A stretch of DNA of 64,000 nucleotides from an uncultured Candidatus Saccharibacteria bacterium (GCA_964432725.1 CAYSOP010000002.1:44354-108353), one strand, 5' to 3'. Shown: positions 8,494 through 58,741, counted from the stretch's first letter. Made by a program: numbers and translations. Notes: generated from the sequence alone by a model not told the origin.

Positions 8494-9048
8494 TTACTTG
8501 ATTAGGGTATTGATGACTGCAAAGTCGTCAATAATTGTTTGGCGCTGGCTGCCATTGTATAGCGCTGCTGCCGGATGGTATAAGGGCAAAATTGTATAGC
8601 CCTGCCACTGTTGCGGCACACCGTGCACTTCGCCAATACGGGCTTCAGGCAGGAAACAGTTGGTACTATGCCGGCCCAGGGTCACGATTAACTGTGGCTG
8701 AATAACCTCAAGCTGAGCTGTTAAATATGGCAAAAACTCGGCTTTTTCTTCTGGACGAGGGTCACGGTTTTTGGGCGGGCGATATTTGAGGATGCTTGTT
8801 ATATATACATCCTGCCGCTCTAAACCAATCCCTGCAAGCAACTCGTCTAAAAACTTACCCGCGGCGCCTATAAAGGGGCGACCGGTAAGGTCTTCGTTTT
8901 TGCCAGGCGCTTCGCCTATGAAAATGATCTTGGCATCCGGACTGCCTTCGCCGAACACCATGTTGTTGGCCGTTTTGGCCAAATCTGGATTGACATTGTT
9001 TTTGACAATATCTGCCCTAATCTGGTCAAGTTGCGCCTGCTTATCCAC
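8494..9048 (-). CDS. uracil-DNA glycosylase, family 4
   Basis: 'IFIGEAPGKNEDLTGRPFIGAAGKFL' and 'LYHPAAALYN' motifs. I prefer the in-frame GTG at 9048, which sits behind GAAGGAAAGG; this removes the overlap with 9041-9274. The ORF track starts it at 9081. Confidence 0.8.
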   Translation of the reverse strand: MDKQAQLDQIRADIVKNNVNPDLAKTANNMVFGEGSPDAKIIFIGEAPGKNEDLTGRPFIGAAGKFLDELLAGIGLERQDVYITSILKYRPPKNRDPRPEEKAEFLPYLTAQLEVIQPQLIVTLGRHSTNCFLPEARIGEVHGVPQQWQGYTILPLYHPAAALYNGSQRQTIIDDFAVINTLIK

Positions 9049-9274
9049 GACCTTTCCTTCGGCCGCCGCGAATGGCCGCAAACGACTCTCTTACGCCAAT
9101 GACAATAAGTAATAAGGTAATGGCGTAGTCTAGCAAGCTGCCGCTGTTTATAGCGAGGCTGGCAAATACATATGCCAAGCCAAGCGCCAGCAAACCGAGC
9201 ACCGCCCGTACGGGGCGGCGCTCAGAAAACGCGCCGAGTTTATTCTTGAACGTCTTTTTTGCCTGCTGTTCCAT
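9041..9274 (-). CDS. small two-TM membrane protein (77 aa)
   Basis: Two hydrophobic helices ('AVLGLLALGLAYVFASLAI', 'AITLLLIVIGV'). The 5' end overlaps the pnp stop by 35 nt. Confidence 0.4.
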   Translation of the reverse strand: MEQQAKKTFKNKLGAFSERRPVRAVLGLLALGLAYVFASLAINSGSLLDYAITLLLIVIGVRESFAAIRGGRRKGRG

Positions 9275-11399
9275 TTAGTTCCCGTACAGCTGCTTTCATG
9301 CTGAGCTGTAATCTTCCCCTATCGTCAACTGCAACCAGCTTGACGGTTACTTTATCGCCTTCTTTTACCACATCGCTGGGCTTGTTGACGCGCTCTTCGG
9401 ACATTTCCGATACATGTACTAAGCCGTCTTTGCCCGGCATAATCTGTACAAACGCGCCAAAGTCCATAACGCTCACTACTGGTTTGTCGTAATAAATGGC
9501 ACCGACTTCTGGGTCTTCGGTAATATCGCGAATCCACTGAATAGCCTTTTTAATGCTTTCGCCGTCGGGGCTAGAGATCATAACAATACCATCGTCTTTA
9601 ATGTCGATTTCGGTACCAGTTTCGCCGGTGATCTTCTGGATGGTTTCGCCACCCTTACCAATAATGTCGCGGATTTTGTCTGGGTTAACCTTGATACTTT
9701 CAACGCGTGGGGCATATGGGCTGAGTTCGGCACGGTGCTCGGGCATAACGGAGATCATATGTTCCAAAATGTGGGCGCGGCCTTCTTTGCCCTGTAGTAG
9801 TGCCTTTTTAAGGGTTTCTACGGGCAAGCCATGGACCTTCATGTCCATTTGCAGCGCTGTAATACCCTTGCTGGTACCGGCGGTCTTAAAGTCCATATCG
9901 CCTGCAAAGTCTTCGGCGTCGGCAATGTCGCTTAAAATAATTGCTTTGTCGCCGTCGATCATAAGGCCCATGGCAATACCGCTGACTGGTGCGGTAAGCG
10001 GCACGCCAGCGTCCAAAAGCGCAAGTACGGCGCTACAGGTAGCAGCCATGCTAGTGCTGCCGTTTTGGCTCATAATTTCGGTAGCCGAACGGATAGCGTA
10101 TGGGAATGCTTCTTCGGAAGGTAGTACCGGTAATATGGCGCGCTCTGCAAGTGCGGAGTGGCCAATTTCGCGGCGGCCCGGGCTGCCAAGGCGCTTGATT
10201 TCGCCAACGGTATAGCCCGGTGCGTTGTAGTGATGGTAAAAGCGCTTTTCTTCGTTGCGCTCCATGGTGTCTAGCAACTGGGCATAGCTAAGCGGTGCAA
10301 GCGTTACGATGTTCATGGCTTGGGTAAGGCCGCGAGTAAATAAGCTGGAGCCATGTGCCCGGGGCAAAAAGCCGACTTCGCTAGACAAGGGGCGAACCTC
10401 GGTAAACTTGCGGCCATCGGGACGGACACCGTCTACCAAAATGTCTTTACGTACATCTTTGTTGGCAGCAGTAGCAAACGCGTCTTCGTAGCTGCGCTTT
10501 ACACCTTCCCACTCGTCGCCGAGTTGCTCGGCAAAGTGTGTCAGTAGTTCTTCGCGCAAGGCGTGCATGCGCTGGTGGCGTTCGGCCATAGGTGCACGAA
10601 GTTTTTCGCCCATTTTACCGTCCAGGAACGCATCGACTGCCTTCTGAATAGCTTCGTCAGGCAGGCTCAGTTCGTATTCTTGGGCTGTTACGCCTACTTT
10701 CTTAACCAGTTCCTTTTGCAAGGCAATGGCTGGCTGCATGGCTTTATAAGCCCATTCTAGTACTTCGGCAACTTGTTCTTCGGTGACGCCGTTCGCGCCA
10801 GCTTCGACCATCATAATGCCACCTTCGGTACCAGCCACCACAATATCGAGGTCGCTCTTGGTTAGGTCGGCCAGTGGCATGAATGCTTCGGGCTTGCCGT
10901 CTTTAAGGCCAATGCGCAAACCTGCTACCGGGCCGTCAAACGGTGCGCCTGTTAGCATAAAGGCTGCGCTGAGGGCAATCATAGCAATCATGTCGGGGCG
11001 GAATGTCGGGTCGGTACTGAGCACCGATGCAACACCCTGCACTTCGTGCCGATAGCCCTTAGGCCACAACGGACGAATAGGCCGGTCGATAATGCGGCCA
11101 ATAAGAACGGCTTCGTCGGAAGGCCTGCCTTCGCGCTTAACAAAGCGGCTGCCACTAATTTTGCCAGCGGCATAAAACTTTTCTTCGTAATCGATACTTA
11201 ATGGAAAATAATCAAAACCAGCCAGTGGCTTGTTGCTTACCATAGCGGTACCGAGTACAACGGTGTCGCCGTAACGAGCGAGTACACTCGCGGTACTGCG
11301 GAAACCAACGCGGTTTACTTCTAGGCTCAGTTTGCGGCCAAAAAAGTCGGTTTCTACGATAATAATGTCTTTTCCGAGGGGATTTATAGTTTGTCCCAT
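9240..11399 (-). CDS. pnp: polyribonucleotide nucleotidyltransferase (PNPase)
   Basis: 719 aa with two RNase PH-like domains, KH ('IIGKGGETIQKI') and S1 ('GAIYYDKPVVSVMDFGAFVQI'). Downstream of rpsO. Confidence 0.95.
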   Translation of the reverse strand: MGQTINPLGKDIIIVETDFFGRKLSLEVNRVGFRSTASVLARYGDTVVLGTAMVSNKPLAGFDYFPLSIDYEEKFYAAGKISGSRFVKREGRPSDEAVLIGRIIDRPIRPLWPKGYRHEVQGVASVLSTDPTFRPDMIAMIALSAAFMLTGAPFDGPVAGLRIGLKDGKPEAFMPLADLTKSDLDIVVAGTEGGIMMVEAGANGVTEEQVAEVLEWAYKAMQPAIALQKELVKKVGVTAQEYELSLPDEAIQKAVDAFLDGKMGEKLRAPMAERHQRMHALREELLTHFAEQLGDEWEGVKRSYEDAFATAANKDVRKDILVDGVRPDGRKFTEVRPLSSEVGFLPRAHGSSLFTRGLTQAMNIVTLAPLSYAQLLDTMERNEEKRFYHHYNAPGYTVGEIKRLGSPGRREIGHSALAERAILPVLPSEEAFPYAIRSATEIMSQNGSTSMAATCSAVLALLDAGVPLTAPVSGIAMGLMIDGDKAIILSDIADAEDFAGDMDFKTAGTSKGITALQMDMKVHGLPVETLKKALLQGKEGRAHILEHMISVMPEHRAELSPYAPRVESIKVNPDKIRDIIGKGGETIQKITGETGTEIDIKDDGIVMISSPDGESIKKAIQWIRDITEDPEVGAIYYDKPVVSVMDFGAFVQIMPGKDGLVHVSEMSEERVNKPSDVVKEGDKVTVKLVAVDDRGRLQLSMKAAVRELNGTAGKKDVQE

Positions 11400-46289: not shown

Positions 46290-46926
46290 GGCCGCGCACC
46301 GTCTGGATTATGTCGTCGCCTATTTTTTTGCGCAGGTTGGCTACAAATGTTTCGACTGTATTGTGTTGCACGCGTGCTTCGTCCGACCACACATGGTCGA
46401 GTAGCTGGTCTTTACTAATAACCTCGCGTTTGTAGCGCAGCAGATATTCAAGCAACTGAAACTCTTTTGCGGTTAGATGCACCGGGCGCTCGGCAACGCT
46501 CACTTCTTTGGCAACAACGTCCAGCTTAAGCTTGCCAGATGTGAACACATTACCAGTGCTGGCTTTTGGCCGGCGTAATAGTGCACGCACTCTGGCCAAT
46601 AACTCATCGAATGAAAACGGCTTAGGAAGATAATCGTCGGCGCCAGCGTCTAGGCCATGTACGCGGTCGCCAATAGTAGTACGGGCGGTCAGCATTAATA
46701 TAGGCATTTGCCCGCCGTGCTCGCGCCAGTGTTTAGCAAGCGCCGGGCCATCGTAGCGGCCAGGAATCATCCAGTCCAGTAATACTAGGTCGTATGCCGT
46801 TGCTTCGGCCAACGCGACTGCTGTGTCGCTGTCTTCTGCGGTATCGACAATATAGCCTTCGCTGGTCAGACCCTTTACGAGGCTGCGTGCAATTTTCTCT
46901 TCGTCTTCGACAACCAATAATCTCAT
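46270..46926 (-). CDS. OmpR/PhoB-family response regulator
   Basis: Receiver 'RLLVVEDEE...DLVLLDWMIPG' plus winged helix 'LTAKEFQLLEYLL...TVRGHGY'. Overlaps the kinase gene by 20 nt. Confidence 0.9.
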   Translation of the reverse strand: MRLLVVEDEEKIARSLVKGLTSEGYIVDTAEDSDTAVALAEATAYDLVLLDWMIPGRYDGPALAKHWREHGGQMPILMLTARTTIGDRVHGLDAGADDYLPKPFSFDELLARVRALLRRPKASTGNVFTSGKLKLDVVAKEVSVAERPVHLTAKEFQLLEYLLRYKREVISKDQLLDHVWSDEARVQHNTVETFVANLRKKIGDDIIQTVRGHGYKVI

Positions 46927-47004
46927 ATGTTCTATTATAGCGTTTTCCCTGAAGATATGACGTAGAAAGCGTCGGAGGGCTATCTAGCTCTTTCTGCCTC
47001 CCGC

Positions 47005-47193
47005 TTACTCTTGTGAGCGCCTGCGTAGGTCGCGTACTGCGTCCAGCACTACCTGCCGGGGCACCACAACTATAATCTCGCCGGGTTCGAGCTCTCGATG
47101 CAATGGACCACATTTGGGCCGGACAATAGCAGGGTCTACTTGCGTGCCAATAGCCGCTATAAATTCTGACTCTTCTGCTGAGCTTCCTGCCAT
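47005..47193 (-). CDS. small hypothetical protein (62 aa)
   Basis: Begins 2 nt after the stop of 47196-47417. No motif. Confidence 0.3.
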   Translation of the reverse strand: MAGSSAEESEFIAAIGTQVDPAIVRPKCGPLHRELEPGEIIVVVPRQVVLDAVRDLRRRSQE

Positions 47194-47195
47194 GT

Positions 47196-47417
47196 CTATA
47201 CCTTGTCAGGCATATTAACTTCCGGGGGAACAGATTGCGCTGCGGGAGGCGTTGCCTCTACGGCTTCGCTTATCACCCGCTGTGCCAAATTTCCGAGGTT
47301 TAATGTACGAGCTACTTCCCTTGGCACGACGAACAAATCCGGACACGTACAATTGGTTGCGCTCCTCAGATCGCCCTCACGTCGACTGGGCGGCGTACCT
47401 AAGCGAATTAACTCCAT
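47196..47417 (-). CDS. small hypothetical protein (73 aa)
   Basis: Strong AGGAGG SD 9 nt upstream of the ATG. No motif. Confidence 0.45.
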   Translation of the reverse strand: MELIRLGTPPSRREGDLRSATNCTCPDLFVVPREVARTLNLGNLAQRVISEAVEATPPAAQSVPPEVNMPDKV

Positions 47418-47473
47418 ACAAGCAAGCCTCCTAATAAAATTAGTATAACCCAGCCTGGATAGATTTACAGAAG

Positions 47474-47533
47474 CTAGCCAAGCTCCTTCTTGAAGGCTTC
47501 TATTAACACCACCGGCGCAGGATTAAGGCCGTT
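47474..47533 (-). repeat. direct repeat DR-L: displaced copy of the last 19 codons plus stop of the PGI/PMI gene
   Basis: 58 of 60 nt are identical to 56642-56701. Both differences are synonymous in the PGI/PMI frame. Confidence 0.9.
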
Positions 47534-47733
47534 AATAATCGGGGCACATGCTTACTGAGTAGCCGTATTTAGTGACCGGCTAGTAATTCACAATTGGCCT
47601 ATCTGTTTAGGGCCTGGCCCCTAAAACCCCTGCCGTTCCAGTATTTTCTTGCTGTAGATTACGTAGAAACAAAATTATGCTTGAGGCAATAAAATATAAT
47701 TAGCGCGATAGAATCACATCTTCACTCTCTGGC

Positions 47734-48330
47734 TTAGTTCTGATCTCGCAATTCCCTGTTAGTTCCACTAGAGATATTTGCGAATGGGGTAATTGCTTCA
47801 ACTGTCTTGAGGTGACGTCGACGTATTTGTTCCTTCAGGCTATCAATATTTTTGATGGTTTTTTTCATACTAAAAAACGAAAAAACCATCATCCCTAGAA
47901 TAAAGACACTACAAACGACTAGAATCTTGCTAACCATAGCTCCGTAAAGTATGCCCATAAGGCCTATACCAGTCATTGTCGGTAATGACTTCTTTGATAT
48001 GTATAACTGCAGCTCGGCCTTCTCAATATATGCGGGCATGGCTTTCGCGAGCCTTCGTTCTCTTGGAAGGGTGCCCTTTTTAAAATAATCCAGCAACTTC
48101 CAGTCTTCGTTTGTACGTGCCATTCCTGGCATCTCATTAATTTTTTTCTTCATTATTATACCCATTGGTACGCCAAAACCTATGGTGGCAAATATGAAAA
48201 CCGGCCACAAAAACGGTCCATTGCCTATATTCGCCATGAGGGCACCAAATGGTAAGCCGTTTAATGCGACAGCTACGGGTATAGAGTTAAGAATGTAGTG
48301 TATCTTTTGTCTACGAGTGGCATTAGTCAT
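47734..48330 (-). CDS. polytopic membrane protein (candidate orphan immunity protein)
   Basis: 198 aa with 4 predicted TM helices. AT-rich codon usage unlike the backbone genes. Confidence 0.55.
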   Translation of the reverse strand: MTNATRRQKIHYILNSIPVAVALNGLPFGALMANIGNGPFLWPVFIFATIGFGVPMGIIMKKKINEMPGMARTNEDWKLLDYFKKGTLPRERRLAKAMPAYIEKAELQLYISKKSLPTMTGIGLMGILYGAMVSKILVVCSVFILGMMVFSFFSMKKTIKNIDSLKEQIRRRHLKTVEAITPFANISSGTNRELRDQN

Positions 48331-48458
48331 CGCTGATACTATACCATAAAAATTACATTTAAGCCAGAAGAGCGTAATGACTCACCGCCTTCGCAACATC
48401 CAAAAAGCCGACTGTTCTACACTGTAAGTTACCACAACTAAACAGGAGAACAGCCGGT

Positions 48459-48835
48459 ATGAGCTATTCTAGCCAATCCTTTACTACCAAAGGCGAGAGC
48501 CGAGGCGGTACGCTTCGTGGTCGAGCGTAAGCTACCCGTCTTGGTAGCTGCTCGTAAGAGCGGTATCCACCGCACCACACTCTGGCGCTGGTGTAAGCAG
48601 TGGCAAAAGCTCAACCAGAACGTCCAACTCACCAACGACAACCGGCCAGGACGAGGCACGGCTACTGCCCGGTGTGCCAGTGGCGCCTAGCCGCCTGCTC
48701 TTGGCGTATCCCCACCAGAAGCAGCCGGCCTCGTCGTTGTAAACATGCGGTAAGCGAAGCGGTCGTAGACCGCATCCACTACTACCGCAAGCGGTATGGC
48801 CGCTGCGCGACCATTGTGCATGCCTACTCTAGCCT
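48459..48835 (+). pseudogene. frameshifted and truncated transposase N-terminus (HTH plus IS481/IS3-type linker)
   Basis: AGGAG SD precedes the ATG at 48459. In a +1 frame it reads 'ARAEAVRFVVERKLPVLVAARKSGIHRTTLWRWCKQW', and in the third frame 'PTRSSRPRRCKHAVSEAVVDRIHYYRKRYGRCATIVHAY'. No catalytic domain follows. Confidence 0.6.
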
Positions 48836-49038
48836 GCTTTTTTACCAAAAAGGCGATGAGCCAGAATGGCTTATTAATGAGGCTATTCTTGCACAGTTCC
48901 GATCACGAGAAGAGTATATGAAGTTTGTGAGTGATTATGAAGCGCACAAACTTATACTTGAGGAGCTTAGGCAGGAGTTGGCGGACGTTTAATTGGTAGA
49001 CGACTTATCTATTTTGGGAATGTCCTCGGCGTTCCCTA

Positions 49039-49407
49039 CTAAGGCTTAATGATCAAATCATTCTTTTTAAATAGATAGTAGATAAGTGAAAATGTTATTA
49101 AAAATCCGATTGCACTAAGACACACTATAAATAGAAGTTGCCCCGTGACAGACTCTCCATACTTATCAAGGATGTTTTTTATATCAAAGATTGTCTTCAC
49201 AGCCACCAGCAAAGCCAGAATTTGCGCGATTACGAACCTTTTAGTGCTAAGGAGCGTCTCAAGTTCTTTATATCTCGGACTCTTTTTGTACTTTGCTATT
49301 AGTGCCTTGCGCTTCAATCTAAGGTAAATCGTCCGTGAGATAAATAGCACTAGAGTAAAAAGAATTGTAATCTCAAATAAGAAAGTGAAATTTTCATTAG
49401 GCTGCAT
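49039..49407 (-). CDS. three-TM membrane protein, candidate cognate immunity protein of the RHS toxin
   Basis: 122 aa, AT-rich, beginning 60 nt downstream of the toxin stop on the same strand. Three hydrophobic helices. Confidence 0.5.
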   Translation of the reverse strand: MQPNENFTFLFEITILFTLVLFISRTIYLRLKRKALIAKYKKSPRYKELETLLSTKRFVIAQILALLVAVKTIFDIKNILDKYGESVTGQLLFIVCLSAIGFLITFSLIYYLFKKNDLIIKP

Positions 49408-49467
49408 TTTACGGACTCCTTAATTTATAGTACACATTTTATAAAAATAACGTTATTTTATCAGATA

Positions 49468-52400
49468 TCATAGGTGAAACGGATTAAGTACAGACCATGG
49501 TGCACCGTCAAGATCATCTGCCCTATCTGAGCCTGTCCAGCCGTAGTAAAATCCTAGGCCAAAGCCAACAACCCCTCCTGCTGCCCAGCCAACCCCACCT
49601 GCCGCTATACACCCAGCACCTGCGAAAACCATACCTATACCGCAGCCCGCTGTCCCGAAGACTACTTGACCTGCAGTAGAATAGTTAGACCCGGTATTAA
49701 TCCCATTATATAACCTGAACCAATTGGATGGTCCTGTTGTCGGTGCTGGATTATAGCTATTGGACCCTTTCGGCAATGCGCTCAAATCACCAAGGATAGG
49801 ACTAACGTGCGTCGGTTTTAAAGCCAGTTGCAAAATTATTGCGATCGGTAATGAGGGCGATCTAGGCACTGTTACGGCGCTTCTAACCGCGCCAGGCCCC
49901 TGAATAGTGATCGTATTCGCCACCGGCCTAAAAACAGGCGGATTAGGCTGCATCTGATAGCTATTTATCACTACAATACTGGTCTTGTAACCACTGCTGT
50001 TTATAACGCCAAGCATCCCGCTATAGTCACTCCCATTCACCGGATCAAGTACATACGTATACGCATTCAGTACACCCCCTTCTACTGGGTCTACTTGGGT
50101 GAATCTACCAATACTTGGGAGGTATACTCTTGCACCCATGGATATTGGAGTTAGGGCAAAGGATGTCTCACTCAGTTTGCCAAGTTTACCGGCCCAGGCG
50201 TAGGAACCGCTGGCTGCGGTGTTGCTGGGGTAGGTGGAACCCGTTAGGATGTTACCGAAAGGGTCGTAGGTGAAGGTGTTTGCGGGGCCGTTACCGGTGG
50301 AGGTGTTTGTGCCTGCAGCGTCGGTAGTTATAAGGGTGTGGCCGTTTATACTAGCTAGGCTGTATTGTTTTTGGGCATTGCCGGTTTGGGTTGGCTTAAT
50401 AGTAAGGGATACACCGCCAGGCAACGATATGTTCTTTTCGACTATTGCCCAACTGCTATCGCGGACGTAGTCGGCACTATCGCCACTGCCCGTGTAGTGG
50501 TAAAACCAGCTGCCTGCCCCGGCCCAACTGCCGTTGGTTATAGTGTTCTTGTAGCGGCCAATAACGCGGCCCTGCACATCGCGGTCGTAGTACATGCCAA
50601 CGCCTGTGTTACTGGAGTTGTACTGTTCGTAGCCAGAGTTGCGGTCTGAACTGTCATAGAATAAATGCAGCGGTGTGGTGCCGGTACCAATCTGGGTCAT
50701 GTTGCCGTGGGCGTCGTAGGTTGGGTTGTCGTACAGCGCATTACTGCTATCTATTAACTTGTCGGCATAGTCGTAGCAAAAGTACGTAGTGACGCCGTTT
50801 ATTGTTTGGCTGGTGCGATTGCTGTTTTTACCGGAGTTGGGATTTTTGTTGTTACCGGTGCCGCAGGTAGTTGTATCTTGCGCGCCAAAGCCATATGCAA
50901 AGCTGTTACCGCCAATTGTTGTGCTGGTTAGGCGGTCGATACCGTCGTAACTGTACGTAGACCACAGGTCGCCGCCGGCGCTGGCGACGATGTCGTTCTG
51001 GATACGTCCGGACTGCGTACGGTTTACGGTATTGCTTATTGTTGTGGTGCCGTTGCCCATACGGTATGTCTTAGAGCTAAGCCGGCCCAGGTTATCGCGG
51101 CCATATGTAATCCGCTGCTGGCCAGCACTTGGGTAATCTATGTAGTCGGCACGACTATATGAGTCGTAGTGAACGGTTGCGTAGGTAACCGTGTCTAGTT
51201 TTTGGTCTACTAGCCTGCCGTAGGTGTCGTAGGTAAACGCCTCCGTGCCCATTGGGCTGACGCGTTGAGTTACACGTCCGTAGGTGTCGTAGGTTGTGGT
51301 CGTTTCGTCGTCGTATACATCGCGGTACTTTGTTGTACGGCCCAGTAAATCTTTCCAAACTACAATCCAGCCACTGCCATCCCATGTGGTTGTTACGAGT
51401 GGACTGCCGCCGACAGCGTAGTCGTTTTGAATAGTACGTGCTGCTGCGCCGTTGAACGCAGGAATAGTAGTCTGAGTCACGCGGCCACGAGTATCGTACG
51501 CGGTACATGTCCAGCTATCTGCATTGTAACGGGCAGCCACTACCCTGCCAGCGTCGTCGTAAATGACTTCGCTGGTTCGGCCGGTTTGCGAGCTTGCGCC
51601 GTCTGGATCTGCCTCGGTTTTAGTCTTTACGAATCCGCCCTGTTTGTAAGCTTCGGTCGTACCTGTCGTACAGGGATTGTCTTTGGTGTCGGTAGCGCCA
51701 TAGTAGGCGTAATTTGTCGTACCGCCACCGGGCAAACTTTTGGTGAGTTGGCGAATATAGCTGCCCGTAGCGCCCGGCGTTTCGTAGGTTGCAGATGTGG
51801 TGAGGTTTAGACCTGTAGGATCAGCACTCGTGCTTTGGGCTAAGCCTAATTCTGGGCTGGTGCCATAGTTTGTAGTTACTGTATTGTCGCCTAGCGTCCC
51901 GTCGTACGACTTCGCGGTAGTATTCAAGCCATAGCCAGGCTTTAGCTTAACGCCAAGGGCGTCATCGCCGGTTCCTGGATTAGCGTTAACCGCAGACATA
52001 TACAGCTGAAGTTCTGCGTTTGTATTACTTGCCGACGCGTCGTAATACTCCAGGTAAAACCTGTATGCCTTACCCGCTTCTAGCTGTTTCGAGCCAGCAT
52101 GGCTCCGCCACACGCCATTGTTCCAATCGCCTGCAATAAGCTGGTCGTCTATGTACAGCCGAGCGCCGTCGTCGTGGTAAAGGTGGAAGGTGTAGTTGCC
52201 GGTAGTAGGTACACGTAGCTTGCCGGATGCCCGTAGACCCCAGCCGTCAAAGCCGCTACCGATAGTAACGGGCGGCGTTGTATTCCATGCCTTATGCATC
52301 GTGCCAGGCGACGTGGTATCTATGCCGGTAGTTCGCAGCTTTGGTGCGCCAAACAGCACTTTGTTTGTTGCTTTGTAGTCGAAGTAAGTAACTTCTGGGC

Positions 52401-55400
52401 CTACTATATTTTCGTCGTAGGCACTATCTGCGCGTGGCACTTGTGCGACATATGTCGATGTTGGCTTGCGGTCGGGGCCAAACCAACTTGCGGGTGCTAG
52501 CCCGTAACCTTCTATTGGCCTGTCTTCGTCGTCATAAATTGTGGTCGTTTTAAAACTTGCCGGGTCGGTTACGGAAAGTACCAAATCTTTGTCTGGATTC
52601 CACTCTGTTGCAGTAGTCAGGTTAGTGATGTCGGTATGCTCGACTACGCGTAATAAATTATCGTACTTAATGCGCTGCACAAAACCATTTGGTTCGGTTA
52701 AGCCAACTACGTGTTGTTTTGTAATACCTGCGTAGCCTGGAACATTGTTGCCGCCTGAGTCCACGTACCCCTTAACGCCTGGCAGATATTCTATAGTGTG
52801 TTCCACGCGCGTAGCGGTTGCTGTTGCCCCTGGCTGTTTAACGCTTGTTGCGCGCCCTAAATCATCGTAGGTAAGTTCAGTTTTTACCGTAGCGTCGTTT
52901 GTGCGAACGCCTGCGGCTACTGCATCGTTGGCAAGCGCATCTCGCAACCAATTAAGCCTATAGCCGATGGTTACGCCGCCGCTCTGCACTGCTTCGTAAC
53001 CGTAATCGAACGTCTCGCTCCCCGGCGCAACCATACGCGCCAGCTGCTTATTGGTGTAGTAAAAGTACGTTGCACGTCCATCATTTGTTTTTACCGCACA
53101 GAGTAAGTCTGCGGCAAATATTGCAGTGTCAAAACCGCTTGGTGGCGTGGCGCACTCGGTGCTGCCATAGTAAAACACCTTTGCCCATCGTGTATTATCC
53201 ACTCCGTCAGTAATTTGGCTAATGCGTGCTGGAGTTCCTTCGTAAGTGTAGTTTAGCGCAGCTGGCCTACGGTCATCTTTGGGAGTGGTCAAACTTTTTA
53301 GAGTGCCATCTACGTCAAATATATATGTTCGCCCGTCTTTATCTAGCAATGTATGAGTACCGTCGGTATTGCGAGTAAGCTGGCCGTCTTCATTAGCTGG
53401 TGGTTTATATACGCTACCTGCTGTATAGACATACTCATGGGTCGCACCACTCGCGTCGCTTAACACAGCAGTAGAAGGAGTGACTGTTAAGTGGTCGTAT
53501 GCCGCAGCACCACTAGGGTCGACGCCTAGGTTCCAGCCGTCCGGCATTGATTGCACTCCTGGCGTTAACCACGACCTAGGAACAATCTGCTGTGGCACCG
53601 CACCCTGCACTTTCAGCACAAAGCTAGCCGCTCCGGTGTTGTCATAATACTCGATGGTAATCTTGGTTGGCGTATCTGCCGTCAGAGAGTAAGCCGTACC
53701 GTAGCTTTCGGTCGCACCCCTATCCACCCACTCGTTATATACAACCGTGTTTGAGTTACCGAGCATGATCTTTACGCCGTCATCGCTTTTTACGCCGAAT
53801 GTATAGTTACCGGTGGCCGGCACCTTAACGAATCCGGTCCAACGGACTAAGAAACCGTCAGGACCATTTGGAGTAGGCGCAGCCGTACCCCAATCAAAGT
53901 TAAGGTAAGGATCAGTGCGCTTCATCATAAGCGTATTGCCAGATGAGAACGTATTAGTGCCATCGAACTTACCATAGTAGCTACCCACCAGGCCATAAGG
54001 GTCCTCTACTGGTCGCACGCCCGTCTGCAGCCATTCGGCCGGTATTACCTGCTCTGTTACCGGGCCTTTAACATACAGGTGTACATAGGCTGGTGAAGTG
54101 TGTTCTCTAAATTCAGTTCTAAATTTAATCACCTGCCCTTCTTGCAGTGTTATGGACGACCCGTAGCACACGCCCGTGTAGCATCCACCACTTGTGTATA
54201 GCTGTGTGTCGTTAAGATAAATAGCCATGTAGTCGTCGTGATTACCGCCAAAGTAATACGTGCCAGTAGTTGGCGCAACAAAGTAGCCTTGCCACCTAGC
54301 ATAAAACCAATCGCTGTTTGCTATGCCCGGCGAACCCATTCCCCAGTCAAAATCTACCTTTTGATCTACACGCGTAAGGTCGGGCGTAGCGGTTGGCGCG
54401 CCCCCTGAATAATTAGTAGCTACATTCCAGTACTCGCCCACCAGGCCGTTACGCGACCGCAGCGGCGAATTGTAATCAAGATTTACACCTAAACTGCCGC
54501 CACTTGCCGCCGACGTATGACTTGCAGCACCAGTTGTCACATTGCCTGATGCCAGATCAACACTTACCGGCCCGAGCGTGTCGTAAGTTTGTGTTTTATC
54601 TTTTCCGGTACGCATATCAATCCGGAATGGAACTGAGGCACCCCACCCACTGTAAGTCGCTGTAATAGGGTCGTAGCTGCGCGCCTGAACATAGTACGTC
54701 GCCCCGTCTTGTAACATATGGTCAGGTATAGTCCACTGGGTTGAGTCCAGTAAGCCGGAAGGCACTACTACGCCTGTAGCACTTGACCCACTTGTAACTA
54801 AAATCTCGTACTTAAGCGGCGTACTACCATTGGGGTTATCTACCGTATTAACACTAAACGAGGGTTGTGGATCCACATACACCTGGCCTGACGTAGGCGT
54901 CTTCATGCTAGGCGCAACCGGTGGCCCACCATACGTGAATGTTACATAGCTGGCAGGCGTTTGCTCTGTACCCGGATCAAAATTCTTAAACGAATGGTCG
55001 GTGCCATCGTTGCCGCCAATCATAAGCCAGGCACCGTAGTCGCCAAGTGCTAGCCGTGAACTATAAATATCTGTAACGTCAATATCGCCAGACGACGTTA
55101 CACTGCCCGAGTCATTAAATGCACCGCCGTCCAAACAGTTATAGCTATTCAAGCACGAAGCATGCCCCGCATAAAACGTATGCGTTCCCCAATCGCCAGT
55201 CCAGAAACTCTCATTACTGCGCTGTACTAAATGCAATTTGGCCTGGATTAAGCTAGTACCGCCCACACGAAACTGATCATATGGCGCAAAAAACGCAGAG
55301 CGCCAAGAGCGAAGTGTGGGGCCTGGATCGTACAACGTACCTGCGTAAGGATTACATACGTTGGAATAACAAATATATCCGTCGTTTTTAAATGACATGT

Positions 55401-56550
55401 AATTACCGCCAGCTCGCGTACCAAACCGACTATTAAAGGTCGTCGGGTCGATTACGGCCGGGAATGCTTTAGCTGGCAAACCCTGTAAATAGTCACGAGC
55501 TACGCTTACTGCTACCCTATTCGATGTATGCGACTGGGTAAGTATGCCCGATTGAGTCACCTGGCCAAATTCATTCAAAATTAAGTTTGGTGGGGCGATA
55601 GCAAATTCATTATTAAATACACCCTTCAGTACCAAAGAAGGTGCCAAATACTCACCTAGTGATTGCTTTTCTAAAGTCGCGCCAACAACATCAAATGCTA
55701 TCTGATTAGTTGCTGTTTTATTTTTAAGAATAATGTTCTCTTTAATTGATCCCGTGCCTACCAAGTATTCAACATTAACACCAGGCCATAAGTCGTAATA
55801 ATGCACAATCTGCCGCCCGTCCTCTGTGCGCGTAATGACTGGCGCAACTTCGGAAGCCCCGACAGGCACAAAGCCAACTTGGTCATTTCCCTGCTTTATA
55901 CGCACCATTCCCCGGCTAGAGTCGCTAGGCGAAAACCTTGCCTGCCAATCATTGTCTTTAACCATAAAGTTTGTCGTCGACGATACCCAAGATTGCGCCG
56001 CTCCAAATGCCCTGCCAAATACCGTGCCGGCGTCTCCGGCATTTTTATCTTCTACAAGTAATGTATCGATATCTGTCCACACACCACCCTTTTGGAAAAA
56101 CTTAGGTGCAAAGTACTGCTTTGTAGTGAGCGTACCGTCGGCATTAACCGAAGTTGTAGTGGTGGCAGTCCGCTTATTAGTCAATTCATGGGCTTGTACC
56201 TTTGGCTTTTGCTTAAGCTCGTTCAGGGTCTCACTAGACACTGACCTTTTTCCTATCTGATCTACTGTCGTTGGATTGGTGGGTTGAGCATCGGCTGCAG
56301 CTTGTTCGTTAGACGTTACTATGGGCGTAGCGCCAGGGTAGTTCTGCTGCATAGGTGTTGTCGTATCGGGTGGCGTACCTTTGACGTGCGGATTTATCTT
56401 AACTGCCTGGCTAGCGGCATACGCCGATGCCGGTGGCACCAACATACTGGCTACAAATACAGTCAAAAAAGACAGCGCCAGGATGCGCCGTAGCAGTATG
56501 TTTATTTGGATTTTTATATTTAATGTAAGCCCCGACGGTCTGCGCAGCAT
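49468..56550 (-). CDS. secreted PA14-domain / RHS (YD-repeat) polymorphic toxin, WapA-like, 2360 aa
   Basis: GGGGAG SD. N-terminal TM/signal '[22 protein letters not shown]'. Three PA14 modules (aa ~701-832, 851-985, 1385-1520; for example 'GLVGEYWN...DFDWG...[19 protein letters not shown]'). Many YD repeats ('YTYDxxGR', 'YDxxGR'). RHS core end '[31 protein letters not shown]', followed by a 182-aa C-terminal module. Confidence 0.85.
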
Positions 56551-56606
56551 AGGTACTCCCCTTGTTTACCCGTACTATATCGTAAGGTTTGCTGGGGAAT
56601 CATTAA

Positions 56607-56636
56607 CTATTTATCATATTTGCATATGATAAATAG
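56607..56636. terminator. 13-bp AT-rich perfect palindrome at the island/PGI junction
   Basis: CTATTTATCATAT-TTGC-ATATGATAAATAG, 5 nt downstream of the PGI/PMI stop. It could be a terminator, an operator or a recombination site. Confidence 0.35.
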
Positions 56637-56641
56637 AATGC

Positions 56642-56701
56642 CTAGCCGAGCTCTTTCTTGAAGGCTTCTATTAACACCACCGGCGCAGGATTAAGGCCGT
56701 T
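56642..56701 (-). repeat. direct repeat DR-R (3' end of the PGI/PMI gene)
   Basis: Partner of 47474-47533. Confidence 0.9.
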
Positions 56702-57676
56702 TAACAGCCCAAGGTACACGCTTACGAAGTCGCCATACGCAATAGTCCATAGTAAGTGTTCCAGGACAGTCTCGCCCTCGGCCTGCACCACAATTGGTTC
56801 GGGACGTTTGCCAGACAGCATACGGGCACCTACCTCAAAACGCCGTTGTACACGGGGGTGCTCGAGGTCACTGCGCAGGTCTATAACTGCATACGGCTTA
56901 TCACGAGGTTGTTCGCTCCAACCCGGTAATTCATTGTGGTCAAATTCTGGCAATTGCCCGGCCCAAGCTACCTGCTTGGCGTTTTCGTTGATGCTAATTT
57001 TCCATTTATAAGCAGCGGCAAATTGATGAGGGCCACCATACACAACAACCGATTTACCCAGCAACTCTTGGGCTAATTGCTTGGCTGGATTATTGGCAGT
57101 TGGCACCGTAGGCAGCCAGGCCTCGCTGGCTTTGTCGACAAAATTAGCTGCCGTGGTAAGTTCTGCAAATAACTGGTCGCCCTGTAAAACGCCCGCTTGC
57201 TGCAAAATAATTAAAAGCGCCTTAAAGTTAGCAAACATGGCGTAGCGGGGCTGGTCCACTTTTGGCACTTGAATAAACGGATAGTTCTTTTGGGTAGCAA
57301 TTTCTTGCAGCTTGCCACCGCTGGCAATAACGGCTATTTGGGCGCCTTTTTTAGCCGCGTCTTCTAGTGCGCTGACCGTCTCCTCTGTATTGCCCGAGTA
57401 ACTAGACACCACAACCAGCGTGTTGCCATTTACATAGCTTGGCAACGTATAGTCGCGGACTAGTTCGAACGGCTTCGGCAGCGTCGGCCACGTATGCACA
57501 AGCTGTCCGGCAAGCGCCGACCCGCCCATACCGGCATAGACAATAGTATCTATCTGGCCGAATGCAATCGTACCGCGTACCGGCAAATCCATCCGTAATT
57601 GTTCTGCTTGTTTGGCAATAATTCCCAGCGCGTCTTGCGCATCAAGTTCGTGTATATTTTTTAAATCGTCCAACAT
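56642..57676 (-). CDS. bifunctional phosphoglucose/phosphomannose isomerase (SIS domain)
   Basis: 'YAGMGGSALAGQL' and 'LVVVSSYSGNTEET' SIS motifs. The ~340-aa length is typical of the PGI/PMI family. Confidence 0.75.
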   Translation of the reverse strand: MLDDLKNIHELDAQDALGIIAKQAEQLRMDLPVRGTIAFGQIDTIVYAGMGGSALAGQLVHTWPTLPKPFELVRDYTLPSYVNGNTLVVVSSYSGNTEETVSALEDAAKKGAQIAVIASGGKLQEIATQKNYPFIQVPKVDQPRYAMFANFKALLIILQQAGVLQGDQLFAELTTAANFVDKASEAWLPTVPTANNPAKQLAQELLGKSVVVYGGPHQFAAAYKWKISINENAKQVAWAGQLPEFDHNELPGWSEQPRDKPYAVIDLRSDLEHPRVQRRFEVGARMLSGKRPEPIVVQAEGETVLEHLLWTIAYGDFVSVYLGLLNGLNPAPVVLIEAFKKELG

Positions 57677-57761
57677 AAAATGATTCTACTCACCTTCCCT
57701 TAAAAAGCTTGTGCTATAATTGGGTCATATCATAATACTATAGTATTTTAGGGGGAAAGAT

Positions 57762-58250
57762 ATGTTTGGAGGGCGCACAGAAGCCACTCAACCAGGGGAT
57801 GACACGAGCGTAAATACGGTAAGCCCGTCTATTGATGCTCCGTCCGATCCCGCACCGGCAGCCGCTGCGCCACCGGTCATGGACAGCCCCGCGTTCTTAC
57901 CCGCCCCTACCGACGCCGACGTAGCCGCACCAGCAGCCCCCTCTGCCAGCGCACCTGTCGTGGCCGCCGCTAGCGATGACGACCTACTTGGTATTAAGCA
58001 ACAAGCATTGCAGCAACTTTCGCCACTTGTTGGCCACCTAGACCAAACCCCCGAAGACAAATTTCGCACAACCATGATGATGATCCAAGCCTCCGACAAC
58101 CAAGCACTTATCAAAGATGCCTACGCTGCCGCAGGACAAATTAGCGACGAAAAAGTGCGCGCCCAGGCCTTACTAGACATCATCAACGAAATTAACTACT
58201 TTACCCAGCAAGGTCAAAATAACACAACGTCTACTGACAGCGTTTCGTAA
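57762..58250 (+). CDS. hypothetical protein (Ala/Pro-rich N-terminus, helical C-terminus)
   Basis: GGGGGAAAG SD. 162 aa. Confidence 0.55.
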   Translation: MFGGRTEATQPGDDTSVNTVSPSIDAPSDPAPAAAAPPVMDSPAFLPAPTDADVAAPAAPSASAPVVAAASDDDLLGIKQQALQQLSPLVGHLDQTPEDKFRTTMMMIQASDNQALIKDAYAAAGQISDEKVRAQALLDIINEINYFTQQGQNNTTSTDSVS

Positions 58251-58741
58251 TGCATTTACCTAGCCTTCCTCGTTTTATCCCTGTGGGGCCAATTCGTCGC
58301 CGCCGGCTAGAGCAAGTGGCACAACTACGTGCCGAAGATGCTAAATTGCAGGCCGCACGCCGTGCACGGCTGGCCGCTAAACGCGCAGCAGCACGCCCTT
58401 CTACGGTCGTAAAATCTACCCACCTGACTAGTAAACCAATACACCACCAAACAATGCATACCCGTCCGCCGCATAGTACGCACTTAGCACGTACTGCCGC
58501 CCCACTTCATACACCCACACCGCCAAAAATAACTACGCCGGTCACACAATCTACGCCGCAGCGTGCTATGCCTACACCAGCGTATTCACAGCCAGAATCG
58601 GCCATGCCGGCAAGCCCGCAAACTCCAATAATGCCGTCAGCCCCCTCACCCACAATCGCTAACAACGTTTCGCGTGGACGTGGCACCTATGCAAACGACT
58701 TTAGTCGGCGCAACAGTTACGTTGCACAACTCTCGAGATAA
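58250..58741 (+). CDS. hypothetical basic, Pro/Thr-rich protein
   Basis: TAATG stop/start overlap with the preceding gene. Followed by an intrinsic terminator. Confidence 0.5.
   Translation: MHLPSLPRFIPVGPIRRRRLEQVAQLRAEDAKLQAARRARLAAKRAAARPSTVVKSTHLTSKPIHHQTMHTRPPHSTHLARTAAPLHTPTPPKITTPVTQSTPQRAMPTPAYSQPESAMPASPQTPIMPSAPSPTIANNVSRGRGTYANDFSRRNSYVAQLSR

Follow-up and report, generated by a model that had tools for sequence, protein, structure and literature searches.

An intact, probably secreted Rhs cocoon protein of Candidatus Saccharimonadales, a proposed toxin decorated with PA14 modules and accompanied by a candidate immunity gene

A 64,000-nucleotide stretch of DNA from an uncultured Candidatus Saccharibacteria bacterium (hereafter the window) carries a single reading frame of 2,360 aa, which raises the question of what its product is, how it would leave the cell and which cell it would act upon. 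We found that the locus encodes an intact, probably secreted Rhs cocoon toxin of Candidatus Saccharimonadales, of a known kind but in a form that is as yet uncharacterized. Together with a small gene downstream, it probably makes up a two-gene polymorphic toxin-immunity system, in which a Sec-exported, glycan-targeted Rhs toxin would carry a membrane-depolarizing payload.

Domain organization of the cocoon and its lectin-type modules

The open reading frame (ORF) lies on the minus strand, has an ATG start codon, spans 7,083 nt and contains zero internal stops. The gene, its predicted parts and its downstream neighbor are given below, with the evidence for each in brackets.

49468..56550, stop codon included, minus strand: whole gene, PA14-decorated Rhs/YD polymorphic toxin (ORF, Pfam, NCBIfam, homologs)
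56416..56550, minus strand: signal-peptide-like N-terminus, aa 1 to ~45 (hydropathy, sequence)
54931..56208, minus strand: beta-rich conserved N-terminal region, aa ~115-540 (AF2, homologs)
54616..54918, minus strand: FN3/Ig-like domain, aa ~545-645 (weak profile match and fold)
54451..54588, minus strand: DUF6531-like conserved segment, aa ~655-700 (family conservation)
54055..54450, minus strand: PA14 domain 1, aa 701-832 (Pfam PA14)
53596..54000, minus strand: PA14 domain 2, aa 851-985 (Pfam PA14, GLEYA)
52399..53493, minus strand: YD/RHS shell, first part, aa ~1020-1384 (RHS_repeat, phmmer, AF2, Foldseek)
51931..52398, minus strand: PA14 domain 3, aa ~1385-1540, inserted in the shell (Pfam PA14, Foldseek)
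50269..51930, minus strand: YD/RHS shell, second part, aa 1541-2094 (RHS_repeat, TIGR01643, AF2)
50014..50268, minus strand: Rhs-associated core, aa 2095-2179 (TIGR03696)
49726..50013, minus strand: C-terminal linker/pre-toxin of the 'MLGVINSS' type, aa 2180 to ~2275, ~95 aa (tail comparison)
49471..49725, minus strand: putative terminal toxin module, aa ~2276-2360, ~85 aa (composition, family alignment)
49039..49407, minus strand: candidate cognate immunity gene, 122 aa, three predicted membrane helices (hydropathy, HMM, linkage)

The domains that the initial annotation had read from this DNA were all recovered, but it had overlooked the candidate immunity gene (49039..49407), the division of the tail into two parts, the glycine zipper and a probable earlier start of the shell. 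The three profiles that it had named for checking, PA14, PF05593 and TIGR03696, all scored above their cut-offs, PF05593 marginally so (23.4 versus 22). YD repeats were also detected by TIGR01643 (31.1 bits versus a cut-off of 15.8). Ahead of the third PA14 module, where a YD block had been placed, an RHS_repeat match was found at aa ~1322-1346, aa 1284-1342 matched the Rhs structure 7q97 in a phmmer search, and the AF2 model displayed beta-hairpin repeats between PA14-2 and PA14-3. The second part of the shell contained three RHS_repeat stretches and a TIGR01643 match at aa 1754-1781, and was modeled as a block with pLDDT mostly above 90. The AlphaFold model of aa 985-2184 (pLDDT 84.9, pTM 0.80) was then matched by Foldseek to Rhs, teneurin and Tc cocoons with E values of 1.5e-35 to 1e-24 over ~1,250 columns; 8qjd_B was the best match, and the others included Tse5 (8cp6, E 3.1e-34), RhsA (7q97), Tse15, teneurins and TcB-TcC. 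The profile matches and the predicted structure showed that the body of the protein is, as modeled, a Rhs/YD cocoon, in agreement with the long YD/RHS shell proposed at the outset.

The cocoon may begin earlier than the first clear repeats. The segment of aa ~655-700 had a mean column identity of 76% in the family, and, of 16 segments taken from homologs at the position of aa 640-712, 8 matched PF20148 (DUF6531; best E 1e-4), the window's own copy being unmatched. It found no matches in a PDB profile search and was modeled with low pLDDT when the shell was lacking. This segment probably represents the first strands or the plug of the Rhs shell, so that the shell would start before the tandem PA14 pair, and the pair would probably be placed between these first strands and the remaining shell.

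At the other end, the RHS core end motif that had been noted was borne out by TIGR03696 at aa 2095-2179 (49 bits versus a cut-off of 32.5). The motif reads D2154-P-x-x-G-G-x-x-N-x-Y-x-Y-x-x-D-P-x-N-x-x-D2175-x-x-G2178, and D2154, G2158, G2159, N2162, Y2164, Y2166, P2170, D2175 and G2178 were invariant in 55 sequences; its last element is D-Y-S-G as against the canonical D-P-x-G-L. As judged from this motif, the core, by way of D2154 and D2175, would cleave the chain behind ~G2178, and the 182-aa C-terminal region would remain inside the cocoon until delivery.

PF07691 matched the whole protein in three stretches (E 1.7e-46, 158 bits versus a cut-off of 24), the best of which, aa 852-976, was overlapped by GLEYA at aa 900-982. 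A piecewise Pfam scan detected two copies in aa 701-1000 (E 2.6e-30, 105.6 bits) and PA14-3 at aa 1432-1518 (E 3.2e-18, 66.4 bits). The tandem modules annotated at 54055-54450 and 53596-54000 thus agreed with Pfam as aa 701-832 and 851-985, and the third one, annotated amid the repeats at 51991-52398, corresponded to aa 1385-1520 with YD sequence on both sides; it is inserted ~350 residues into the shell, with shell sequence flanking it on either side. In a phmmer search of the PDB, the tandem pair (aa 724-997) resembled the PA14 dyad structure 6qdi (E 2.1e-24), further PDB matches of the PA14 domains being 6qe7 (RsgI3; PA14-2) and 6m8m, and PA14-3 in the shell model was matched by Foldseek to 6qdi (rmsd 2.9). 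Every PA14 carries an Asp-Asp pair (D772-D773, D923-D924 and D1460-D1461), at the location of the calcium-binding DcisD motif, which is no more than suggestive. Carbohydrate binding, and with it recognition of a host or competitor, is suggested by the domain families, and the PA14 modules on the cocoon would bind glycans of the target cell envelope.

An embedded PA14 had been called unusual. This holds in comparison with characterized Rhs proteins but not within the protein's own family, in which all 120 listed homologs share it. The shells of relatives carry PA14, B_lectin, CBM_4_9, DUF1349 and a DUF346 propeller as lectin-type modules at ~5 recurrent positions. Tentatively, the Rhs cocoon could be a re-targetable display platform, on which lectin-type modules (including PLL-like propellers) are swapped at ~5 surface positions while the shuffling of tails and immunity genes proceeds independently, the system moving repeatedly between Saccharibacteria and Actinomycetota. 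If so, one delivery capsule would be re-aimed at different cell-envelope glycans, and it would be a weapon shared in an arms race of epibiont with host and epibiont with epibiont, Actinomycetota being the hosts' phylum.

The variable tail, its partner and the likely target

More than 120 full-length relatives (43-58% identity) were aligned, and similarity mostly ended at aa 2178-2183, after the invariant G2178. Beyond this point, the tails of 61 RHS genes were grouped by BLAST into 22 clusters, and some of the tails contained Pfam toxin domains (e.g., PF15649 and PF15533). A variable C-terminal module, as first annotated, was confirmed against 120 homologs. The abrupt end of similarity behind the core in these relatives, together with co-variation of the tail and the downstream ORF, supported the claim of a polymorphic toxin.

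The tail of the window protein consists of two exchangeable parts. The 'MLGVINSS' linker was joined to other tails in P0011, P0030 and P0028, and the same terminal module occurred behind other linker types. Within that module, aa 2291-2338 (48 aa) contain zero D, E, K or R and form a hydrophobic hairpin with a five-fold GxxxG zipper (A2317-G2321-G2325-G2329-G2333-G2337), which fits the published (G/A/S)xxxGxxxG definition (PMC12744356). Two cysteines that flank the hairpin loop, Cys2303 and Cys2314, were invariant in the family alignment, and the module has an acidic end. The glycine-zipper tail was found in 67 representatives, C-terminal in all of them, and these included other Rhs scaffolds whose core ends differ (P0152 and P0187). 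It matched nothing in Pfam at E values up to 1 and nothing significant in a profile search of the PDB (best E 0.098, to an unrelated protein). The tail is an analogue, not a demonstrated member, of the known glycine-zipper depolarizing toxins, and because it has no detectable similarity to known toxins, membrane depolarization is proposed from its composition and from analogy. The payload would comprise the linker and the ~85-aa uncharged glycine-zipper helical hairpin with its two invariant cysteines, and by analogy with Tse5-CT, TspA, EsxX and TelE it would most likely insert into the target cytoplasmic membrane, oligomerize and dissipate the membrane potential.

A small gene starts 61 nt downstream of the toxin gene (GC 35%). 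Small ORFs began near the stop codon in 55 of the 61 RHS genes, mostly at -16 to +61 nt. All eight loci with a glycine-zipper tail (8/8) had a homologous three-helix membrane protein of ~115-123 aa just downstream, the three-segment topology being kept in the family alignment, whereas loci sharing the linker only had unrelated downstream partners. An HMM of the partner built from other loci scored 49039..49407 at 38.1 bits, whereas the top score among 2,000 shuffles was 12.9 bits. Pairwise association of tail and partner gave an odds ratio of 24, computed over pairs that are non-independent. Given this linkage, the 122-aa three-helix membrane protein would shield the producer's own membrane.

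Because related genomes keep orphan immunity copies without the toxin, the target would most likely be related Saccharibacteria that compete with the producer for its niche, with an actinomycete host as the alternative. At one related RHS locus (L081), an orphan array of immunity paralogs was found without this toxin, which fits attack between related cells better than attack on a host. The immunity family also occurred only beside these RHS genes, in 7 clusters, with no orphans in named actinomycetes in a search of limited sensitivity. Nevertheless, the same system might be aimed at the host, its lectins binding host wall glycans, its pore-forming tail releasing nutrients or killing, and the immunity protein serving self-protection only. 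The tandem PA14 pair is similar to the PA14 dyad with which clostridial RsgI proteins sense polysaccharides. The family is found mostly in Saccharibacteria, but its occurrence in cultured actinomycetes as well suggests that the two groups meet ecologically and exchange genes. Moreover, Saccharibacteria grow epibiotically on Actinobacteria (PMC13622651). With the orphan immunity genes set against these points, we regard a host target as rather unlikely, at perhaps one chance in four.

An attack on any cell presupposes that the protein is a toxin. It might instead serve chiefly in adhesion at the cell surface, with a rigid glycan-binding stalk made up of the cocoon and the PA14 modules; the uncharged hydrophobic C-terminal hairpin, rich in glycine, could then anchor it in the producer's membrane. 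Three PA14 modules and an FN3-like unit are typical adhesin content, 48 uncharged C-terminal residues could cross a membrane, and the tail lacks homology to known toxins. However, the same body in relatives bears dozens of unrelated, non-hydrophobic tails, nuclease-type toxin domains included; the identical tail type sits on different Rhs scaffolds; and the autoprotease motif that would separate tail from body is invariant. The tail also varies together with the small ORF closely linked to it; an anchor needs no immunity-like partner and would leave orphan partner arrays unexplained. A mainly adhesive role is therefore very unlikely.

Export and comparison with known systems

The toxin, as we read it, would be exported by the Sec route. 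The N-terminus has a basic n-region and a hydrophobic core (aa 14-46) followed by a cleavage-type motif, ASAYA|AS, and P-x-A-S-A-x-A-A is kept in the family consensus. These features agree with the Sec-type signal or anchor of the initial annotation, and a signal peptide of this kind would direct the 2,360-aa protein to Sec export. Searches of Pfam and NCBIfam detected no PAAR, VgrG-binding, LXG/WXG or TcA-binding propeller domain in the protein, and profile searches of aa 1-700 at E values up to 1 detected no cell-wall-binding families. Neither a cell-wall anchor nor a domain for entering the target was recognized, which counts against the proposed mechanism. By sequence and profiles, the protein shows the combination typical of WapA, a putative Sec signal peptide with no T6SS or T7SS adaptor. 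Delivery by a dedicated machine, as for a T6SS Rhs effector, a T7SS LXG protein or a TcB-TcC pair with TcA, is suggested by the nearest solved structures, those of T6SS Rhs effectors and TcB-TcC, but is scarcely credible given the signal-peptide-like N-terminus, the missing adaptor domains and the housekeeping neighbors (genes for phosphoglucose isomerase, a two-component system, arginyl-tRNA synthetase and GroEL). We know of no system for which the route of cargo release from a Sec-exported cocoon into another cell has been established.

Behind the signal peptide, the AF2 block of aa ~115-540 had a pLDDT mostly of 85-97. Foldseek returned no convincing PDB fold match for it; the model matched A0A8S5MN12 of BFVD (E 1.5e-16), and DUF7948 matched aa 248-292 weakly, under its cut-off (E 0.0014). 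The ~500-aa N-terminal region lacks an informative PDB match, which likewise counts against the proposed mechanism. For aa ~545-645, a weak match of Ig_Rha78A_N (aa 560-637, E 0.09) and FN3 matches in Foldseek (e.g., 2djs, TMt 0.66) were in keeping with the Ig/FN3-like segment annotated here.

WapA of the monoderm Bacillus subtilis, which Koskiniemi et al. in 2013 reportedly described as a contact-dependent toxin of the Rhs/YD type that relies on Sec, is similar by description: it has an N-terminal signal peptide without a T6SS or T7SS adaptor, a big YD/RHS body and a Rhs core, behind which comes a C-terminal toxin that is polymorphic, and its immunity gene follows directly. WapA differs in its N-terminal cell-wall-binding repeats and tRNase tails, whereas the window protein has the ~500-aa N-terminal region, the FN3-like unit, three PA14 modules, at least one of them in the shell, and a membrane-type tail.

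For the payload, Tse5 (RhsP1) with Tsi5 of Pseudomonas aeruginosa is comparable in its Rhs cocoon (8cp6), its C-terminal depolarizing domain, a property proposed here for the window protein, and its membrane immunity protein. Tse5, which is loaded onto the spike of a T6SS, lacks lectin domains, and pore formation is demonstrated for Tse5 but would be expected here by analogy. No sequence similarity of Tse5 or Tsi5 to the window's tail and immunity protein was detected in Pfam and PDB profile searches. Tse5 is a Rhs-encapsulated pore former, and both its immunity protein Tsi5 and TsaI, the immunity protein of TspA, are membrane-bound (PMC12744356, PMC11630599). TspA/TsaI, EsxX/ExiCD and TelE are glycine-zipper toxin systems of the Firmicutes T7SS (PMC12744356). 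TspA, EsxX and TelE share with the window system an extended C-terminal (G/A/S)xxxGxxxG zipper, polytopic or membrane-bound immunity proteins and immunity genes that also occur as orphans in non-producers. They act on monoderm membranes from outside, as the window toxin presumably would. They differ in LXG and T7SS delivery as opposed to a Rhs cocoon and Sec, no homology to them was detected, and the two invariant cysteines are specific to the window's tail family.

Within the family itself, Starr et al. (2018) noted in Ca. Teamsevenus rhizospherense (CP025011) a possible secreted polymorphic toxin of 2,487 aa with RHS/YD repeats, PA14 and a neighboring immunity gene, in one sentence that gives no analysis of tail, immunity protein, shell insertions or distribution (PMC6031116). 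The corresponding locus (L030) encodes a 2,486-aa ORF of the same family, with 54% identity in the best segment, but with another tail class and another downstream ORF. Teneurins, TcB-TcC and mosquito SGS1 are more general parallels, with a YD shell, a Rhs-type core and non-YD domains attached or inserted. Their accessory domains, an NHL propeller in teneurins, the TcB propeller and receptor-type domains in SGS1, are fixed per family, whereas the window family carries bacterial lectin-type modules that vary between close relatives at the recurrent positions.

Integrity of the reading frame

RHS genes are repetitive and often multicopy, and a second assembly of the same organism breaks inside the gene, leaving a partial protein of 1,001 aa at a contig end (HSX31933.1); yet an assembly chimera or decaying pseudogene is most improbable, since the 7,083-nt frame is uninterrupted, its product has more than 120 colinear homologs, over 50 of which are of equal length and align with it from one end to the other, and the window contains no second RHS copy with which it could have been merged. 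Independent assemblies also agreed on the 3' 2 kb, a 2-kb Logan assembly matching window positions 48539-50559, which cover the 3' part of the gene, at 100%. The single 2,360-aa ORF originally claimed was confirmed, and the identical protein is recorded on a 116-kb NCBI contig.

Integrity and domain architecture of the RHS gene

The RHS gene consisted of a single ORF with an ATG start, and, as the initial annotation had claimed, it encoded 2,360 aa and ran the length of 49468..56550 without interruption; no second long ORF crossed this interval in any other frame. The gene and its surroundings are as follows.

Features of the RHS locus
47734..48330, minus strand: 198-aa membrane ORF with roughly four hydrophobic segments, a GC content of 41% and no match in Pfam; the exact protein occurs in NCBI and Logan.
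48517-48992, plus strand: 57-aa ORF with weak HTH_23 and transposase-type helix-turn-helix matches (E 1.9e-4, below the cut-off), overlapping a 130-aa ORF.
49039..49407, minus strand: candidate immunity gene, 61 nt past the RHS stop, encoding 122 aa with three hydrophobic segments.
49468..56550, minus strand: RHS gene.
57762-58741, plus strand: two adjacent Pro/Ala/Ser-rich ORFs (162 and 163 aa) located upstream of both the isomerase gene and the RHS locus.

Exact-sequence lookup found the identical RHS protein on a 116-kb NCBI contig together with the window's GroEL (HSX31929.1) and phosphoglucose isomerase (HSX31932.1), both labelled Candidatus Saccharimonadales bacterium by their source. 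In addition, an independent 2-kb Logan assembly (SRR9179560) was 100% identical to window positions 48539-50559 over 2,021 nt, thus confirming the 3' part of the locus, namely the gene's 3' end, the 61-nt gap and the downstream ORF. Colinearity with the RHS ORF was likewise seen in more than 50 homologs of equal length. An assembly artefact was considered as an explanation of this ORF and rejected. In a second public assembly of the same organism, a 7.8-kb contig ended within the gene, leaving only a 1,001-aa partial sequence of the RHS protein (HSX31933.1). The RHS gene appears prone to breaking short-read assemblies.

The whole window held no second RHS copy, and neither orphan toxin fragments nor additional immunity genes were found in 46900-49470. 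The 57-aa ORF may mark what is left of an insertion sequence, situated between the candidate immunity gene and the membrane ORF that comes next. That 198-aa membrane ORF showed no relationship to any of the downstream, immunity-position ORFs of the related loci compared; it could encode a membrane protein unrelated to the system or else be an immunity orphan from a class so far unseen. Pfam scanning of the first Pro/Ala/Ser-rich ORF gave no match, and promoter and terminator counts in 47000-57800 equaled those of shuffled sequence and were uninformative on co-transcription.

Pfam analysis of the whole protein identified three PA14 stretches (PF07691, E 1.7e-46), GLEYA, a family related to PA14, and RHS_repeat, the last barely over the threshold. 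NCBIfam placed the Rhs-associated core TIGR03696 at aa 2095-2179 (49 bits versus a cut-off of 32.5) and also matched YD_repeat_2x (31.1 bits versus 15.8), so that the PA14, RHS repeat and RHS core assignments proposed from the sequence were all recovered by profiles. When the protein was scanned in six pieces, two PA14 domains lay within aa 701-1000 and the third at aa ~1432-1518, in agreement with the proposed aa 701-832, 851-985 and 1385-1520, and RHS_repeat matches flanked the third domain on either side.

A Sec-type signal or anchor had likewise been proposed, and the N terminus indeed showed basic residues ahead of a hydrophobic core (aa 14-46) and then an ASAYA|AS site, which was kept in the family consensus as P-x-A-S-A-x-A-A. 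Judged from these sequence features, the protein is probably exported via Sec. The following region, aa ~115-540 (window 54931-56208), had a confident predicted fold with no informative fold match in PDB; the only PDB matches for the N-terminal model were generic FN3 matches to an FN3-like unit at aa ~545-645. Against a viral structure library, the N-terminal region matched A0A8S5MN12, an uncharacterised protein of 1,379 aa from Siphoviridae (E 1.5e-16, TMq 0.45), and, more weakly, FN3-containing phage tail proteins. The A0A8S5MN12 match is strong yet uninformative on function. This region could anchor the protein or bind a target.

Predicted cocoon shell and its lectin-type modules

Residues 985-2184 were modeled from an alignment of 54 colinear homologs, giving a model with a mean pLDDT of 84.9 and a pTM of 0.80. 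Foldseek against PDB recovered every solved Rhs-type cocoon in alignments spanning ~1,250 columns, among them the Salmonella bongori Rhs core 8qjd_B (E 1.5e-35), Tse5 (8cp6_B), RhsA (7q97), Tse15 (8uy4) and RhsP (8h8b); a teneurin-like protein, teneurins and TcB-TcC were matched as well. The RHS shell recognized in the initial annotation is therefore a predicted cocoon of the Rhs type.

The PA14 structure 6qdi was matched inside the cocoon model with an rmsd of 2.9. Shell sequence was found ahead of this third PA14 domain, as indicated by a YD motif at aa 1228, a match of aa 1284-1342 to the Rhs structure 7q97 and an RHS_repeat match at aa ~1322-1346. Because shell material precedes it, the third PA14 domain is an insertion ~350 residues into the shell, which upholds its proposed location within the repeat region. 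The PA14 domains would lie on the outer face of the cocoon.

Whether the tandem PA14 pair is likewise an insertion, placed between the first shell strands and the remaining shell, received partial support from a segment preceding the pair. This segment, aa ~655-700 ([17 protein letters not shown]...LGVNLDYNS), was among the most conserved of the family (76% mean column identity) and resembles the opening motif of canonical Rhs proteins. PF20148 (DUF6531) was matched by 8 of 16 homolog segments, with a best E of 1e-4, and not by the window's own copy; a PDB profile search with aa 640-712 returned zero matches, and the segment was modeled with low confidence when the shell was left out.

The embedded PA14 domain had been called unusual. 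Within the family of this protein it is universal, being present in all 120 homologs listed, and is one instance of a broader pattern of insertion. BLASTP mapping revealed extra sequence of ~100-380 aa in relatives at recurrent query positions, near aa 1255-1275, 1357-1405, 1650, 1832-1842 and 2000-2017. Among ten representative shell insertions scanned with Pfam, three had no match and the others contained a DUF346 propeller repeat (named Beta-prop_PLL in its source annotation), PA14, B_lectin (three), CBM_4_9 and a double DUF1349. All the identified modules are of carbohydrate-binding type. With at least 170 loci in species-representative genomes, this modular lectin set, the presumed targeting apparatus of the protein and part of the shell itself, offers a natural variant series for testing.

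Polymorphic tail, candidate immunity gene and proposed action

A search of 5.8 billion proteins gave 149 matches to the RHS protein. The 120 matches listed were 1,860-2,849 aa long and 43-58% identical, and the named ones were mostly from Saccharimonadales. BLASTP mapping showed that similarity to most relatives stopped at query aa 2178-2183, directly after the motif DP-x-x-GG-x-x-N-x-Y-x-Y-x-x-DP-x-N-x-x-D-x-x-G, in which D2154, D2175 and seven more positions were invariant in 55 sequences. Beyond G2178 the sequences diverged immediately, and the tails of 61 RHS genes fell into 22 BLAST clusters; some homologs carried Pfam toxin domains, e.g. PF15649 and PF15533. Since homology breaks sharply after the core motif and the tails vary, the protein bears the signature of an Rhs polymorphic toxin, and the homolog survey agreed with the C-terminal variability assumed in the initial annotation.

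The tail itself was composed of two parts. It opened with an "MLGVINSS" linker, which was joined to other endings in three homologs (P0011, P0030 and P0028), and closed with a glycine-zipper module of ~85 aa, which followed different linkers in P0003, P0091, P0058, P0107 and others. This ending contained zero charged residues in aa 2291-2338, small residues at four-residue spacing (A2317-G2321-G2325-G2329-G2333-G2337) and an acidic end, and C2303 and C2314 were invariant across the tail-family alignment. A tail profile searched against 1.84 billion representatives retrieved 67 proteins, with the module invariably at the extreme C terminus. Rhs core sequence lay ahead of the tail in 11 of the 14 short matches read, and in two proteins (P0152 and P0187) the module was attached to other Rhs scaffolds, whose core ends were of the canonical DPLGL type. 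The varied scaffolds and the C-terminal placement therefore indicated that the module is a mobile, Rhs-associated putative toxin domain without a Pfam entry.

The candidate immunity gene at 49039..49407 had a GC content of 35%, compared with 50.7% for the window. In three loci with the same tail (L001, L002 and L003), an ORF of 115-123 aa lay 36-55 nt downstream, and an HMM built from these partners scored the window ORF at 38.1 bits, compared with 12.9 bits for the best of 2,000 shuffles. A small ORF was present near the RHS stop in 55 of 61 RHS genes (59 loci), mostly at -16 to +61 nt. Tail and partner were linked: all eight loci with the glycine-zipper ending had a homologous partner, that of L004 being recovered by tblastn, and the partners of L008 and L059, which share the linker alone, were unrelated. 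Across the 59 related loci (L001-L075) and the window, immunity-position ORFs were typically 10-15 GC points under their RHS gene (35% versus 50.6% in the window).

Up to E 1, no Pfam family was matched by the C-terminal 181 aa or by the 122-aa ORF, and the tail alignment, searched as a profile against PDB, gave nothing meaningful. Both are new families, small and very rare, with 67 representatives among 1.84 billion proteins for the tail and 7 clusters among 5.8 billion for the immunity protein.

Immunity genes of this family also occurred apart from their toxin. Locus L081 had three tandem orphan paralogs of the three-transmembrane (3-TM) immunity family (107, 33 and 81 bits) at 9001-10141; the RHS gene upstream of them ended in a different tail and was paired with a 149-aa partner of its own. 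At 13730-17407 of L002, the main pair was directly followed by what resembles an orphan cassette, namely a second, truncated RHS copy (1,044 aa) in which PA14 and shell sequence led into a different tail, plus a 173-aa ORF downstream of that copy. Such arrangements, in L081 and L002 alike, are typical of polymorphic toxin loci.

We infer that the RHS protein would be exported through Sec and that its PA14 domains would bind glycans. Autoproteolysis would occur after ~G2178, with the tail enclosed in the cocoon; the hairpin would enter the membrane, oligomerise and depolarise it, and the 3-TM partner would protect the producer. Membrane activity is suggested by analogy with Tse5, TspA, EsxX and TelE. 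In Tse5, an Rhs protein, the enclosed C terminus forms membrane pores, and the corresponding immunity protein, Tsi5, is bound to the membrane; glycine-zipper motifs are present in TspA, EsxX and TelE, toxins that all depolarize membranes (PMC12744356, PMC11630599). The TspA immunity protein TsaI is membrane-bound, and for EsxX the block is imposed from outside by two polytopic membrane proteins, ExiC and ExiD, orphans of which also occur in non-producers (PMC12744356, PMC11630599). No sequence homology of the tail to these four toxins was detected by Pfam (E up to 1) or PDB profile searches; at best, the tail would function like them, as an analogue rather than a demonstrated family member. 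Delivery by T6SS, T7SS or Tc was considered and rejected, as was an adhesin with a membrane anchor. As a putatively glycan-guided, probably membrane-acting toxin with an immunity gene and orphan arrays, the RHS protein is a concrete candidate for competition on host surfaces.

Precedent and distribution

Rhs toxins that the T6SS fires or that Tc toxins carry are well understood, and WapA exemplifies the Sec-dependent form of Rhs polymorphic toxins in monoderms. Few molecules are known through which Saccharibacteria contact hosts and rivals. Rhs polymorphic toxins paired with an immunity gene are a familiar kind, and a published precedent exists for the basic annotation: Starr et al. 2018 mentioned, in a single sentence, a 2,487-aa homolog that might be a secreted toxin, noting its RHS and YD repeats, its PA14 domain and an immunity gene next to it (PMC6031116). 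The genome concerned is that of our locus L030. The reading given in the initial annotation is supported, as a prediction where function is concerned, and its basic annotation has precedent. Not described in the literature searched were shell-embedded lectin modules at variable hotspots, the division of the tail into two parts, a cysteine-stapled glycine-zipper toxin family with a 3-TM immunity family, orphan immunity arrays, and sharing of the family with actinomycetes.

Scanning of 185,579 species-representative genomes yielded 170 relatives, of which 76 loci were kept, mostly from Saccharibacteria MAGs and including the complete genome CP025011. The family was also carried by the cultured actinomycetes Actinokineospora globicatena DSM 44256, Allorhizocola rhizosphaerae and Streptomyces sp. 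NPDC047072, as well as by actinomycete MAGs, including one of Jatrophihabitans. The members in these three isolates and the Jatrophihabitans MAG (L015, L023, L037 and L046) were full-length. The GC content of the actinomycete copies equaled that of their own flanks (0.62-0.69), and they are therefore resident genes. A rough neighbour-joining tree, computed with no support values, placed the four actinomycete copies at four separate positions among the Saccharibacteria copies, and this scatter suggests repeated transfer between Saccharibacteria and Actinomycetota. The hosts of epibiotic Saccharibacteria belong to Actinomycetota (PMC13622651).

Six loci (L017, L020, L032, L036, L045 and L050) came from MAGs labelled Nevskiaceae, Woesebacteria, Burkholderiales, Limnocylindria, Chloroflexi and Acidobacteriota. 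Because their GC (0.45-0.56) and nearest relatives were Saccharibacteria-like, these contigs may be mis-binned. Several genomes carried two to four copies, and in many Saccharibacteria loci the GC content of the RHS gene was 3-10 points above that of its own flanks.
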